IMG/VR virus record: IMGVR_UViG_3300028797_000117
DNA: 64,000 nt
Origin: an uncultured virus (IMG/VR IMGVR_UViG_3300028797_000117)
Lineage: Duplodnaviria; Heunggongvirae; Uroviricota; Caudoviricetes
Direction: 5' to 3' (one strand)
Position 1 is the first letter of the stretch. Every line of letters begins with the position of its first letter. This document shows positions 56,124-63,991 of the stretch, piece by piece. The position numbers and the translations under genes are program-made. The notes under the pieces are model-generated. The model searched no databases. It was not told where the DNA came from and saw only the letters and a list, made by a program, of their open reading frames with translations.

Positions 56124-57332
56124 TTAATTTCCGTATTTAGAAGTTAGATAGAAGTTAGACACTGCTTTAAAAGAATTAACCCCATCATAAGTTCTTAATA
56201 CTACTCCTTCTCTATAATCTCCATCAACAGTAGAATCTCCATCTGCATATGCTACCATTTCTTCTATTGTATTAGGTAGGCGGAAATGCTCGTCTAAGAT
56301 AGGTACACATGGAATCTGATATAAATCTAACCAATCTGTCATTTCTCTTGGATTTAATCTTTCAACCCTACCGTCTTTATGCCCGAATATTAAATTAAAT
56401 GCTTTAAAATCTACATCATCCATATGATAATCTCTTTGTTGAATTCCTTTACCATATGTTTCCCCTTGTATAGTTACAAAAGTTATATCATTTCCTGATG
56501 TATATAATAAATTATGAAGAACAAATTCCATATTATATTTTTCAGCCATTTGAGTATAAACATTTGTTTCATAAAAACATTGTTTTTCGGGTTTATCAAA
56601 TACTACATTTCTTGAGCATACATAAAATTCATATTTATTTCTTCTACCTTTTTTCATAGTAAATGTAGTTGATGTTCCATCTATCTTTTCTGTTACAAAC
56701 CACTCTGTATCGTCTCCTGGAAATAATTGAGGTAAGTTTTGAACTCTTTCTTCATCTGTTTTTACTACCCACTCAGGCCAGAATGAAGCTTTAGCATCGT
56801 GTCTATTTCCTAAAAATAAGAATAATACTTTTTTGCCCCAATTTTTATTATATAAAGTTCTTAATAATTTATATTTAGCAAATAATTTAGCATTTCTTTG
56901 TTTCATTCTTGCATATTTATTTACTGTTGCTTTTCTTTTATTATCATCACCAATTGCATATGTAACCCCTAATTCAGTTGTTACAAAATCTCCTACTTGA
57001 TGAGGGTCATCCATTTCCCAACCTAAATCTGCAAAAGGTATAAGTAAACCTTGAGATACAAAATTTCCTTTACCACCAAATGTATATTTTTGAGTTTTTA
57101 CTTTATAATGTTTTGGAGCTAGAAATTGTGCCCATTCAGCAGACTCAGGTAGTTTTGAATCTATTTCAAAATAAACTGCAATAGATCCAGGTAAGAAAGT
57201 GTTCTTTCTAACCATAATATTCCATCCCCCAACAACAGCACATTCACAATTATCTGAACCTGTTATTGGGCGGATATCATCTATATTAACTATATATGCT
57301 AATTCTCTTTGTTTTGTATTTGGATTTATCAT
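56124..57332 (-). CDS. ATP-dependent RNA ligase (DRB0094/Rnl5-like) with N-terminal OB fold
   Basis: Motif I VTEKIDGTS; VCSRN, IQGE, REGVVLR, SFKAVS; N-terminal RELAY...VYFEIDS...SQGL. Confidence 0.85.
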   Translation of the reverse strand: MINPNTKQRELAYIVNIDDIRPITGSDNCECAVVGGWNIMVRKNTFLPGSIAVYFEIDSKLPESAEWAQFLAPKHYKVKTQKYTFGGKGNFVSQGLLIPFADLGWEMDDPHQVGDFVTTELGVTYAIGDDNKRKATVNKYARMKQRNAKLFAKYKLLRTLYNKNWGKKVLFLFLGNRHDAKASFWPEWVVKTDEERVQNLPQLFPGDDTEWFVTEKIDGTSTTFTMKKGRRNKYEFYVCSRNVVFDKPEKQCFYETNVYTQMAEKYNMEFVLHNLLYTSGNDITFVTIQGETYGKGIQQRDYHMDDVDFKAFNLIFGHKDGRVERLNPREMTDWLDLYQIPCVPILDEHFRLPNTIEEMVAYADGDSTVDGDYREGVVLRTYDGVNSFKAVSNFYLTSKYGN

Positions 57333-57376
57333 AATTCTTCACCTTTCCTTTTTATATAAATATTATACTATATATT

Positions 57377-58069
57377 TTATTGTAATTCAATAAAATCTTC
57401 ATATAAACAAGTAAATTGGTCTGTTAAATTAATATTCATATGATAATGACCAAAATACCAATGTTTAAAAGTAATTTTATTTTTTAATTTTTCTAACATT
57501 TGTTCTGATACGTGAGTTATATCTCTCATTTCGCCCCCATGTTGGCATAAAAACCCTCTATGAGAATTAAAAATACTATATGGACAACAATGAGTAAATA
57601 CATAATCATATTCACCTACTATATTTTCTATATTTTTTTCAGTTATTTGTTCCTGCGGCCACCAGCTTTTACCTTCTACACGCCACGCTCTATCAATGCT
57701 ATCAGCGCCGCCTAAAAATAGCATATGTGCTGGTTTTCCATTTATATCCACAATCATATCAGTTCCTCTACTTACATAAGTAATATGTTCAGAACATTTA
57801 TGCATAGGCTTTTTAAATGTATCAATGATATCAAAATTTTCATGATTACCATCGATCCAATATAAATTAACCCCATTACAATATCTTTCATAGTTTAAAA
57901 TACTCGCTTGAGCATCTTTTTGGTCTTTATCCCAATAAATACCCATATCGCCACAAACTACAATATTACTTTCAGAACCTAAATCAAATCGCCAAATAAA
58001 TTGTAATATTTTCATTAAACTACCGTGACAGTCGCCTGTTACAAACCAACGATTTTCCATAGTAATCAC
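57377..58069 (-). CDS. Calcineurin-like metallophosphoesterase
   Basis: GDCHG, CGDMG, DGNHE, GGADSID, THCCP, FGHYH. Confidence 0.9.
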   Translation of the reverse strand: MITMENRWFVTGDCHGSLMKILQFIWRFDLGSESNIVVCGDMGIYWDKDQKDAQASILNYERYCNGVNLYWIDGNHENFDIIDTFKKPMHKCSEHITYVSRGTDMIVDINGKPAHMLFLGGADSIDRAWRVEGKSWWPQEQITEKNIENIVGEYDYVFTHCCPYSIFNSHRGFLCQHGGEMRDITHVSEQMLEKLKNKITFKHWYFGHYHMNINLTDQFTCLYEDFIELQ

Positions 58070-60830: not shown

Positions 60831-61180
60831 AAGACAGGATATTAAAGCACCCATTGCTATTGCTAATTTTTGCTGTTTCTGTCTTTTTTTATTTACATAT
60901 ATATTATATCAAAAATTTTTATTTTTTGCAAATTATGAGATGGCTACTTATTAAATAATTTTATGACTTAGGTCAAGTAGAGTTTCTCCAATGATTACAG
61001 CCCGTTACCAGACTTGCGCTTTCGCATTAAAATCACGACATGGGGTCTCCCTCCATATGACTTGATTGCCACTTAGTTCATACTTTAATTCTAATAAGTA
61101 TCACTCTAGGAGTTTTCCTCAGCAATAATTTGCTATTAAAACTAGAATAGTGTGCCATCAAAGATATATATTCAAATTTA

Positions 61181-61362: not shown

Positions 61363-61801
61363 TGGTGGACCTGACGGGACTCGAACCCGTGTCCTAAAAC
61401 AATACTATACCAGAAATCTCACTCTTGCGTTACAAGTTTTACCATACATATATATGGGTCAAAGTGACGATTCGATCCTTACCTCATTATGTTCACTTGC
61501 GTTCAGAGAAGGCTCCTATATTAATGTTAGTTCACAATAGCTAATCATATAAGAGAAGAATTAACTACACGGCAACCCTTGCTAGTTAATACGACTATAC
61601 TTTTTCTGGTCGCTTCCCGATACTTATATAGAAGTTGCTTAGCACTACGCGAATGCTACACAATTAAATGTGAATAAAGATTTAACCTTATTAGCAATTT
61701 TTGAAAAAATATTTCCGTTTATTTTGTTTATTGCCTTTTAAGTAACTGCCTACTACTTGTATTCTGATACTATACCATTCTAGTCGAAACCAAACAAGCC
61801 C
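61363..61801 (-). ncRNA. ssrA: tmRNA
   Basis: 5' GGGCTTG..GGTTTCGAC pairs with 3' CAGGTCC-ACCA (G3:U70); T-arm ACGGG-TTCGAGT-CCCGT; tag frame 61716-61645 GNIFSKIANKVKSLFTFNCVAFA*. Confidence 0.9.
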
Positions 61802-62734: not shown

Positions 62735-62824
62735 CAAGGCGCATTATATTAAGGAATCGAACCTTATCTTTCTGTATTTGAAGCACAAAAATTTAACCAT
62801 TTATTTATTTGCTGTGTACGCCTT
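62735..62824 (-). ncRNA. tRNA-mimic RNA with a TCA anticodon loop and ACAGCAA bulge (Y-RNA-like)
   Basis: Outer stem AAGGCGTA/TGCGCCTT; D-like AAAT-AAATGGTTAA-ATTT; TTGTG-CTTCAAA-TACAG; TAAGG-TTCGATT-CCTTA; no canonical acceptor or CCA. Confidence 0.6.
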
Positions 62825-63018: not shown

Positions 63019-63279
63019 TTATGAGGCTGCAGCTACTCTTTTCTCTACTTCTAATAATTTAGCTCTATGTCTACGACCACTACCTGCAGGATGTGCAGCA
63101 ACAAAAGCAGCTGCTGCTTCTTTTAATTCTTTTCCTCTAGGAGTTAAATATTTAGTAGCCATAGGATTTCTTTTTAATTTCTTATTAGTTTTACCTTTTT
63201 TATCTAAATTGTGTTGAGTAATGCTATATTGAGCTTCACCACTACCTGATTTTCCTTTTCTTCTTGCCATAACATTCAA
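63019..63279 (-). CDS. Small basic protein (likely start MARRKGK)
   Basis: Promoter at 63304-63332; shares NL.KKGKTNKKL..NP.A.KY with 42756-42914. Confidence 0.7.
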   Translation of the reverse strand: MNVMARRKGKSGSGEAQYSITQHNLDKKGKTNKKLKRNPMATKYLTPRGKELKEAAAAFVAAHPAGSGRRHRAKLLEVEKRVAAAS

Positions 63280-63411
63280 CCTTCCTTTCTTGTTTACATA
63301 TATATTATATTATAATTTATTATAAAAATCAATAAAAATATGCGGCCGCCGATTATAAGAATCTTTGACCGCATTCAATATATATAAAACAGCTGCTGCT
63401 GTGTTATTGTC

Positions 63412-63507
63412 TGGCAGGGGTTGCAGGATTCGAACCCACACCCCGGGTTTTGGAGACCCGTCTCTATGGTTTTGAAGACCACTGTGCTACCGTTACACTA
63501 AACCCCT
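63412..63507 (-). tRNA. tRNA-Trp with two tandem anticodon arms (TCA then CCA)
   Basis: AGGGGTT-TA-GTGT AACGGTA GCAC-A-[GTGGT CTTCAAA ACCAT]-AGAGA-[CGGGT CTCCAAA ACCCG]-GGGT-GTGGG TTCGAAT CCTGC-AACCCCT-G-CCA. Confidence 0.85.
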
Positions 63508-63892
63508 ATTCAAACAAGTCAGTTTTATCGCTAAGCAAATATAAATCCCAATCCTTAAAAGCCATAAAATTACCATCTTCAGCAATCCACTCTTTGAATG
63601 TCATATAATCATTAAGTTCTATATAATCTCTAAAATCTATTTTAATATTATATTCTTTAATAAGATATTCATAATCCCTTTTAAAATAATCTAATAAAGA
63701 TTCTCCTTCTTCTGCGGGTTTTACAAAGAAACCTTTTTTCTCAGAAAGCTTATCCATTAAGTCAAAGAAAAATTCTTTCCAATTAGCATTTAATTCATAT
63801 AAATATTTTAAACTTAAATCATACTTATTAATAAGTAAAACACCTTTTTGTAATTCTTCATATTGATAATCATTTAATTTTTGAGATTTCAT
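63506..63892 (-). CDS. Hypothetical 128-aa protein between the two tRNA-Trp genes
   Basis: AAAGGAG RBS; starts MKSQKLNDYQ; its TAG overlaps the first 2 nt of the dual-arm tRNA. Confidence 0.65.
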   Translation of the reverse strand: MKSQKLNDYQYEELQKGVLLINKYDLSLKYLYELNANWKEFFFDLMDKLSEKKGFFVKPAEEGESLLDYFKRDYEYLIKEYNIKIDFRDYIELNDYMTFKEWIAEDGNFMAFKDWDLYLLSDKTDLFE

Positions 63893-63916: not shown

Positions 63917-63991
63917 TGGCAGGGACACTAGGACTCGAACCCAGATAACTGGTTTTGGAGACCAGGGTCTTAGCCTTTAGACGATGTCCCT
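63917..63991 (-). tRNA. tRNA-Trp(CCA)
   Basis: AGGGACA...CTGGT-CTCCAAA-ACCAG...TGTCCCT-GCCA. Confidence 0.93.

Follow-up and report, generated by a model that had tools for sequence, protein, structure and literature searches.

Background

Code-4 phages of the gut and rumen have been described by Borges et al. (10.1101/2021.08.26.457843) as carrying a tRNA(UCA) that reads UGA in recoded late and structural genes, in hosts that are presumed to use the standard code. It was hypothesised by these authors that the tRNA is charged by the tryptophanyl-tRNA synthetase (TrpRS) of the host, and the charging mechanism was called an open question; a suppressor was detectable in only 35% of the code-4 genomes. 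The gene considered here encodes a tRNA(UCA) of the same kind and is located at positions 63412-63507 on the minus strand of a stretch of 64,000 nucleotides (nt) from an uncultured rumen virus of the Caudoviricetes (IMG/VR record IMGVR_UViG_3300028797_000117); the whole stretch is referred to below as the window. Unlike the accessible passages of Borges et al., which give no tRNA architecture, the present account centres on the architecture: between its anticodon arm and its T-arm, this tRNA has a second hairpin, in the loop of which lies CCA, the anticodon of tRNA-Trp. The best reading of the gene is that of a phage opal suppressor with a Trp body and the anticodon UCA, which carries ribosomes through 52 TGA codons of the late genes. 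The second hairpin is probably a pseudo-anticodon that serves as a handle for the host TrpRS.

There is an engineered precedent: when GUG was placed in the variable arm as a pseudo-anticodon, HisRS variants charged the tRNA better (Mukai 2020, PMC7590224). There, as in the window tRNA, a copy of an anticodon arm forms the variable arm, and it recruits the anticodon-binding domain of the synthetase. Mukai's system is synthetic, with allo-tRNA 9/3 scaffolds, His identity and a HisRS fused to an extra binding domain, whereas the window tRNA is natural, has a 7/5 Trp body and presumably meets an unmodified host TrpRS. Class II tRNAs (Ser, Leu and bacterial Tyr) likewise have a long arm between anticodon arm and T-arm, which the ribosome tolerates and a synthetase reads. 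In class II tRNAs, according to the available part of a review, arm length and orientation matter, rather than a 7-nt loop in the format of an anticodon loop, whereas in the armed family described below the loop sequence is conserved and the linkers are longer. With bacterial selenocysteine tRNA (tRNA-Sec) the window tRNA shares the anticodon UCA, G73 and a long extra arm, yet it lacks the 8/5 layout and the long D-stem, and the Sec-type genes lack the UCCA loop. Bacterial tRNA-Sec has an acceptor stem of 8 base pairs (bp), a 5-bp T-stem and an extended 6-bp D-stem. In the 'code change' modules of phages (Borges et al.; AP1 and HF2 in Seki et al., bioRxiv 10.1101/2025.10.30.685624), the same problem, that of putting Trp on a UGA reader in a standard-code host, is solved by a normal-length tRNA(UCA) accompanied by the phage's own TrpRS.

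In a literature search over openly readable text, no paper was found that describes a second anticodon arm in a natural tRNA. The first-pass annotation of the window, made from the sequence alone, had claimed that no natural tRNA of this architecture was known; this stands as far as a published description is concerned, whereas the sequences themselves are already contained in the supplementary table of Seki et al. A term search of the main text of that paper found no mention of the second-arm design, its two uses of 'variable' being unrelated.

Architecture of the tRNA(UCA) gene

The gene is called by ARAGORN with boundaries of exactly 63412-63507, under the label tRNA-SeC(tca), and is recognised by the Rfam tRNA model (RF00005) with 58.3 bits against a gathering score of 29, model positions 1-71 being matched in full. 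On the minus strand, to which all positions in this paragraph refer, CCA is encoded at 63412-63414 and G73 lies at 63415. The 5' strand of the acceptor stem, AGGGGUU (63501-63507), pairs with AACCCCU (63416-63422), and the pairs include A1-U72, G2-C71, G3-C70, G4-C69 and G5-C68. U8 and A9 stand between the acceptor stem and the D-arm, GUGU-AACGGUA-GCAC (63484-63498), which has a 4-bp stem and is joined by one A to the true anticodon arm (arm 1), GUGGU-CUUCAAA-ACCAU (63466-63482), with the anticodon UCA at 63473-63475. There follow a 5' linker, AGAGA (63461-63465), the pseudo-anticodon arm in the variable region (arm 2), CGGGU-CUCCAAA-ACCCG (63444-63460), with CCA at 63451-63453, a 3' linker, GGGU (63440-63443), and the T-arm, GUGGG-UUCGAAU-CCUGC (63423-63439). 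The D-arm, arm 1 and the T-arm are placed by the Rfam alignment, in which arm 1 is the anticodon arm and a 23-nt insertion makes up the variable region; ARAGORN likewise puts the anticodon in arm 1 (anticodon position 33). Arm 2 is defined by its covarying helix and by RNAalifold, as described in the next section.

The available part of a review names the anticodon, G73 and the first acceptor pair as the major Trp determinants. In the window tRNA, the B. subtilis tRNA-Trp determinants G73, A1-U72, G2-C71, G3-C70, G4-C69 and G5-C68 are all present; CCA is absent from anticodon positions 34-36, where UCA is found instead, and is confined to the loop of the second arm. On checking against the sequence, the coordinates and base pairs that the first-pass annotation had assigned to the 96-nt gene were all correct, and the Trp identity elements that it listed (A1-U72, G5-C68, A9 and G73, the role of A9 being given on its authority) are present.

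The same annotation had regarded the two arms as a 22-nt tandem duplication, which is not confirmed. By hand count the two 22-nt units agree at 13 of 22 positions; the arms by themselves share 12 of 17. A duplication origin remains conjecture because Tandem Repeats Finder reports no repeat in the armed tRNA at a score of 30. Arm 2 has 15 of its 17 positions in common with the anticodon arm of tRNA-Trp(CCA), an ordinary phage gene called by ARAGORN at 63917-63991 (minus), which is the usual neighbour of the suppressor.

The gene had also been called the only full-bodied UGA reader in the window, and this holds, the sole other candidate being a weak tRNA-like element at 62750-62807 (minus) with an Rfam score of 30.5 bits. 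This element has the loop CUUCAAA (UCA), an AT-rich D region, no CCA and no ARAGORN call; it may be a decayed second UGA reader.

Conservation and covariation of the second arm

A first pattern scan, which demanded both loops, found 10 viral loci, all 10 of which were called tca genes by ARAGORN; tRNA-Trp(cca) lay within the same 632-nt locus in six of them. In an unbiased scan, only the anticodon arm and GGGTTC were fixed, and the gap was left free. The 101 stretches so obtained were reduced to 82 unique tRNA-like genes, of which 18 have a normal variable loop, 19 are of the Sec type and 45 are long-armed (7-bp acceptor, 7/5 layout, G73). UCCA is found in the long-arm loop of 44 of the 45 G73-type viral tRNA(UCA) genes, in contrast to none of the 19 Sec-type genes. 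In 36 of the 45 it occupies a 7-nt loop of the form N-UCCA-NN closed by at least four stacked pairs (CUCCAAA in 17, GUCCAAA in 13, GUCCAUA in three and UUCCAAC in three), and in eight more it lies in a loop of 8-10 nt.

Within this family, the stem of the second arm has 4, 5, 6 and 7 bp in 3, 15, 10 and 8 genes, respectively. The 5' linkers range from 0 to 7 nt (mostly 4-5) and the 3' linkers from 1 to 5 nt (mostly 3-4). G73 is present in all 45 long-armed non-Sec homologues, and A1-U72 in 27 of the 32 rows of an alignment, A2, that was used to assess covariation.

Alignment A2 is composed of the window gene and 31 of 40 listed rows. It excludes seven Sec-type genes, the family member L070 and one duplicate register of L106, and 14 genes with another D-arm scaffold were never in its source list. 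All five pairs of the variable-arm helix change on both sides in A2, and 91.4% of the cells are paired; one of these pairs, for example, occurs as CG 14 times, GC 9, AU 4, GU 3 and UA 2. Pairing over the five helices amounts to 96.9%, whereas shuffles give 77.8%, and none of 500 shuffles reaches the observed value. The covariation score is 0.500, compared with at most 0.110 when the partners are slid, and RNAalifold predicts the second-arm helix from the alignment unaided. Double-arm homologues with covarying stems, for which the first-pass annotation had proposed a search, are thus at hand, the UCCA arm being kept in 44/45 genes and every one of the five stem pairs covarying. On this pattern of conservation and substitution, the second arm is taken to be selected, not accidental.

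A named phage collection gave only ordinary tRNA-Trp matches, and the viral record nearest to the window (G001) has no match to the armed tRNA. Among the matches listed from a scan of bacterial genomes, 95 were chance matches in coding DNA, 21 were true Sec-type tRNAs and five were Trp-type genes. The five Trp-type genes sit on contigs of metagenome bins, and no host assignment follows from the scan.

Reading of UGA as tryptophan

The window is phage DNA, with genes for a large terminase, a portal, virion proteins, sigma factors and an RNA ligase, and with 15 genes for tRNAs and transfer-messenger RNA (tmRNA). Its late/structural block (393-40550, minus), which needs UGA to be read as Trp, holds all 52 in-frame TGA codons. 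A total of 29 minus-strand open reading frames (ORFs) were counted window-wide, 23 of them inside this block; 13 contain in-frame TGA, and none ends in TGA. Their codons include 52 TGA and 107 TGG, i.e. about one third of the phage Trp codons are UGA. When TGA is read as Trp, fragments are joined into ORFs of 690, 924, 1949 and 2749 amino acids.

The meaning of the codon may be read from 44 relatives of the terminase. The six TGA-bearing columns (69 TGA codons) otherwise contain W 136 times (TGG), Y 51, F 6, L 1 and M 1, and none of the six has Ser or Cys in these relatives. Therefore, with columns that are otherwise mostly Trp and free of Ser and Cys, TGA stands for Trp. That the window has a real UGA reader with Trp identity, as had been proposed from the window sequence, is supported by this alternation of TGA and TGG in the terminases of the relatives. 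The terminase family (L112-L189) includes members recoded at TGA (1-5 codons), members recoded at TAG (3-14 codons) and members without recoding. One record, G003, has an armed tRNA(UCA) although its terminase is without TGA.

Charging of the armed tRNAs

The gene trpS (TIGR00233) was found in none of the 20 viral records with an armed tRNA, 11 of which reach a completeness of 90% or more. Of the 10 records with a normal-length tRNA(UCA), two (G017 and G018) have it, in each case within about 3 kb of the tRNA, and these two are pairs of the 'code change' type. In a control search, all 14 reference genomes were positive. This contrast between the armed and the normal-length records is suggestive only.

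The contrast is matched by a published cell-free UGA assay in E. coli extract, in which in-vitro transcripts were supplied without phage factors (Seki et al., bioRxiv 10.1101/2025.10.30.685624). When arms were assigned here to the tRNAs in the table of that study, all 13 tRNA(UCA) with a UCCA arm were active, with RFU_TGA values of 26,699-58,947; the controls in the same table are 5,403 without tRNA and 69,124 for the wild type. Among the other 18 tRNA(UCA) of the table, only tRNAUCA-12 (28,797) and tRNAUCA-18 (50,795) are clearly active. The tRNAs of AP1 and HF2 are of normal length and are encoded next to a phage TrpRS; when that synthetase is left out, they show no activity (6,236 and 6,052, respectively). 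One tRNA of the table, tRNAUCA-6, is by eye the L053 gene and differs from the window gene at seven of 96 positions. Trp was inserted by all 13 non-orthogonal tRNA(UCA) that were analysed, the accessible text not naming which 13 these were.

With these data, a mechanism may be proposed. The real anticodon, being UCA, has lost the CCA that bacterial TrpRS uses as a major identity element. A copy of CCA is kept in a hairpin at the variable position, presented in a 7-nt loop in the anticodon-loop format of tRNA-Trp, N-U-C-C-A-A-N. The host TrpRS would bind this second loop as an anticodon handle, either alone or together with the determinants in the acceptor stem, and the amino-acid identity of the tRNA would thus be uncoupled from the codon that it reads. 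Direct support is available for the architecture, for its conservation and covariation, for UGA=Trp and for UGA suppression in E. coli extract by tRNAs that are nearly identical to this one; from their combination we infer that TrpRS may contact the second loop and that this contact may be important.

Correspondence between the arm loop and the amino acid

The free-gap scan was repeated for tRNA(CUA) and yielded at least 69 unique genes, at least 13 of which have a variable region of at least 16 nt. Among the matches listed, UCUG, which gives the CUG loop of Gln, is present in 11 of the 13 long-armed tRNA(CUA), and UCCA in none of them; UCUG is in turn absent from all 45 long-armed tRNA(UCA). 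The second stem of this Gln version has 2-6 bp. Within these matches, the loop of the extra arm has the anticodon-loop format and matches the inserted amino acid, with no cross-occurrence. The TAG columns read Q in ten TAG-recoded terminase relatives (L129 excluded), and one of these ten, L158 (record G041), is accompanied by a tRNA(CUA) with a GCC-CUCUGAA-GGC arm. The terminase L129, on a 13-kb viral contig, has seven in-frame TAG in columns that read Glu 267 times versus Gln 43 times in its relatives, which hints at TAG=Glu in that phage.

A further combination is found in record G046 (146 kb, 93% complete; L449 and L451-L458). Its single suppressor (L449:94-186), labelled tRNA-Pyl by ARAGORN, has D- and T-arms of the window type, G73, a Trp-type body and a GAGGU-GUCCAAA-GCCUC arm, together with the anticodon CUA. 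The 20 genes of G046 that can be aligned with those of the window contain 62 in-frame TAG, one TGA and no TAA. Of these TAG codons, 47 face a residue of the window proteins (W 24, Y 7, F 3, I 3, E 2, T 2, Q 1 and five other residues once each) and 15 are opposite gaps. Opposite the Trp residues of the window, G046 has TGG 25 times and TAG 24 times. Therefore, from a CUA tRNA together with TAG at Trp positions, it appears that a Trp body with a CCA arm delivers Trp, whichever stop codon its anticodon reads. A literature search aimed at UAG=Trp found no report of TAG=Trp in phages.

These observations somewhat favour the view that recoding phages employ a modular design, in which the variable arm has received the cognate anticodon loop, as a handle for the synthetase, and the anticodon itself is freed for any stop codon. 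The outputs of such a design within this clade would then, on balance, be UGA=Trp (UCA with a CCA arm), UAG=Gln (CUA with a CUG arm) and UAG=Trp (CUA with a CCA arm, in G046). Among the mechanisms that had been listed with the first annotation of the gene, charging by the host TrpRS with the aid of the CCA arm appears to fit best, in view of the amino-acid-matched loops, the TAG=Trp relative and the lack of trpS.

Difficulties and alternative explanations

Several points weigh against the interpretation of the arm as a handle for TrpRS. One member of the family, L070, has a long arm without UCCA. The single-sequence minimum-free-energy fold of the window tRNA lacks the second arm and is not a cloverleaf (z = -0.62), a result that is in itself uninformative. 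The trpS contrast of 0/20 versus 2/10 is not significant (p ~0.1, hand calculation), and many of the records are incomplete. The role proposed for the arm is drawn from comparison only. In the data of Seki et al., the normal-length tRNAUCA-12 and tRNAUCA-18 are active in E. coli extract, i.e. the arm is not required by the E. coli TrpRS, and a dependence of charging on the arm is therefore putative. The comparison of the armed tRNAs with the others in that table is, in addition, confounded by relatedness and by low-confidence gene predictions among the others.

There is also a question of geometry, as a variable arm points away from the body of the tRNA at an angle to its anticodon arm. The stems vary in length, with 4-7 bp in the Trp version and 2-6 bp in the Gln version, and any docking must therefore tolerate flexibility. 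To our knowledge, there is no solved complex of a bacterial TrpRS with its tRNA. Because the stems vary between 4 and 7 bp and the linkers are long, a flexible handle is preferred here to a second decoding arm.

Instead of TrpRS, the second loop might bind another partner, such as an enzyme that modifies the anticodon loops of tRNA-Trp and tRNA-Gln, a phage factor (e.g. the RNA ligase encoded nearby) or the ribosome, or it might be an anti-determinant against mischarging. Genes for an RNA ligase (PF09414 with a PHA02142 OB domain) and for a phosphoesterase next to the tRNA array would accord with this, as would a speculation by Kienbeck et al. (2024), in the accessible part of their paper, in which a phage 'RNA ligase, DRB0094 family' is a possible charging enzyme for suppressor tRNAs. 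The loop, however, tracks the inserted amino acid (CCA for Trp, and CUG in tRNA(CUA) read as Gln), and an aminoacyl-tRNA synthetase is for this reason the simplest partner. Moreover, the tRNAs tested by Seki et al. are active in E. coli extract without any phage protein, and the motifs for modification of A37 are not always kept, as in the loops GUCCAUA and UUCCAAC. A partner other than TrpRS is thus considered unlikely.

It is quite unlikely that the tRNA has two states, with the CCA arm stacked under the D-arm for TrpRS and the UCA arm so placed on the ribosome. Both arms of the window tRNA share the format of a 5-bp stem and a 7-nt loop, the second arm is flanked by long linkers (mostly 4-5 nt and 3-4 nt), and the top pair of arm 1 (27-43; A2 columns 30 and 46), which is G-U in 19/32 rows and unpaired in 8/32, and is left open by RNAalifold, could ease a rearrangement in these 27 of 32 rows. 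In contrast, the spacing of arm 1 is always canonical while the length of the second stem varies (4-7 bp, or 2-6 bp in the Gln version), so that a strict equivalence of the two arms is not conserved. Rfam sets arm 1 as the anticodon arm, and nothing demands a swap of arms over a flexible side handle. From these comparisons, an arm swap that acts as a decoding switch would likewise be unlikely.

The first-pass annotation had further suggested that the tRNA is a precursor, from which the 22-nt arm is excised and the ends religated, which would leave a 74-nt tRNA to switch the code at a late stage of infection. By arithmetic, deletion of either unit does leave 74 nt; an RNA ligase gene lies about 6 kb away, and the tRNA of two relatives needs RNA processing of a different kind, because their anticodon is interrupted by some 600 nt (see below). 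This suggestion fares badly, however, against the contigs of four sequencing runs, none of which joins across the 22 nt, skipping either arm, although rare forms may be absent from contigs. Both arms are kept in a contig of 262 nt that comes from an RNA library (X24 record 6), covers 63412-63509 and is not evidence of transcription. Homologues transcribed in vitro at full length act as UGA suppressors in E. coli extract in the absence of phage factors (Seki et al.), and excision leaves the conserved UCCA loop on a covarying stem unexplained. It is therefore very improbable.

An assembly artefact, or a functionless neutral relic of a recent duplication, is hardly credible as the source of the armed tRNA. 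The assembly was checked with the contigs of the four runs, and in run X3 the exact-match contigs break within the gene, with an overlap of 26 nt. Against this, contigs from two other studies span 63250-63572 (X5 record 17 and X7 record 25), and the arm has been maintained by compensatory changes in dozens of diverged homologues. Variant contigs carry one such change, C to G at tRNA position 48 together with G to C at position 64, in the closing pair of the second arm.

Identity as a selenocysteine tRNA or a serine-accepting class II tRNA, to which the ARAGORN label tRNA-SeC, the anticodon UCA, G73 and the long extra arm might point, has next to no probability, being refuted by the 7-bp acceptor and 4-bp D-stem of the window tRNA, by the loop class (the true Sec-type genes of the scan form a separate class, with UCCA in 0/19), by the TGA columns, which hold W, Y or F and never Ser or Cys, and by the insertion of Trp by 13/13 of the non-orthogonal phage tRNA(UCA) tested by Seki et al.

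Split suppressors and other elements of the tRNA region

In two TGA-recoded relatives, G032 (L433:2029-2731) and G036 (L430:1501-2190, minus), an insertion of about 600 nt, which encodes a PD-(D/E)XK endonuclease (PF11645, E = 1.5e-16), interrupts the armed tRNA(UCA) behind U34. The insertion is preceded by an exon-final U and ends in G, and an insertion-free allele (L033) has exons that are identical by eye. These features suggest a mobile intron of the group I type within the suppressor's anticodon; the Rfam Intron_gpI model gave no match to either insertion. Just upstream of the split suppressor of G032, a tRNA-like element at L433:1500-1565 has the loop CUUUAAA, with an anticodon UUA that would read TAA, and no ARAGORN call.

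The tRNA/tmRNA cluster of the window contains, at 60945-61145 (minus), a partial OLE RNA (RF01071) with 114.3 bits, which covers model positions 284-595 of 616. OLE RNA is known from Firmicutes; a copy in a phage is unusual and hints at the host, which is likely to be of the Firmicutes type. A phage tmRNA with the tag peptide ANKVKSLFTFNCVAFA lies within the tRNA array at 61363-61801 (minus). The RNA ligase mentioned above and the adjoining calcineurin-like phosphoesterase (together at 56124-58069, minus) lie beside the array and look like a tRNA-repair pair.

Significance

If the second arm acts as proposed, several consequences would follow. This would be the first natural case of a tRNA whose identity is recognised through an anticodon copy placed elsewhere in the molecule, and the pseudo-anticodon arm offers a ready-made design rule for the engineering of the genetic code. 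The arm would account for the SeC and Pyl labels that gene finders wrongly give to these suppressors, and such mislabels may contribute to the low rates at which suppressors are detected. Finally, it would answer the question raised by Borges et al. of how a tRNA that reads a stop codon receives the right amino acid from the synthetase of a standard-code host.

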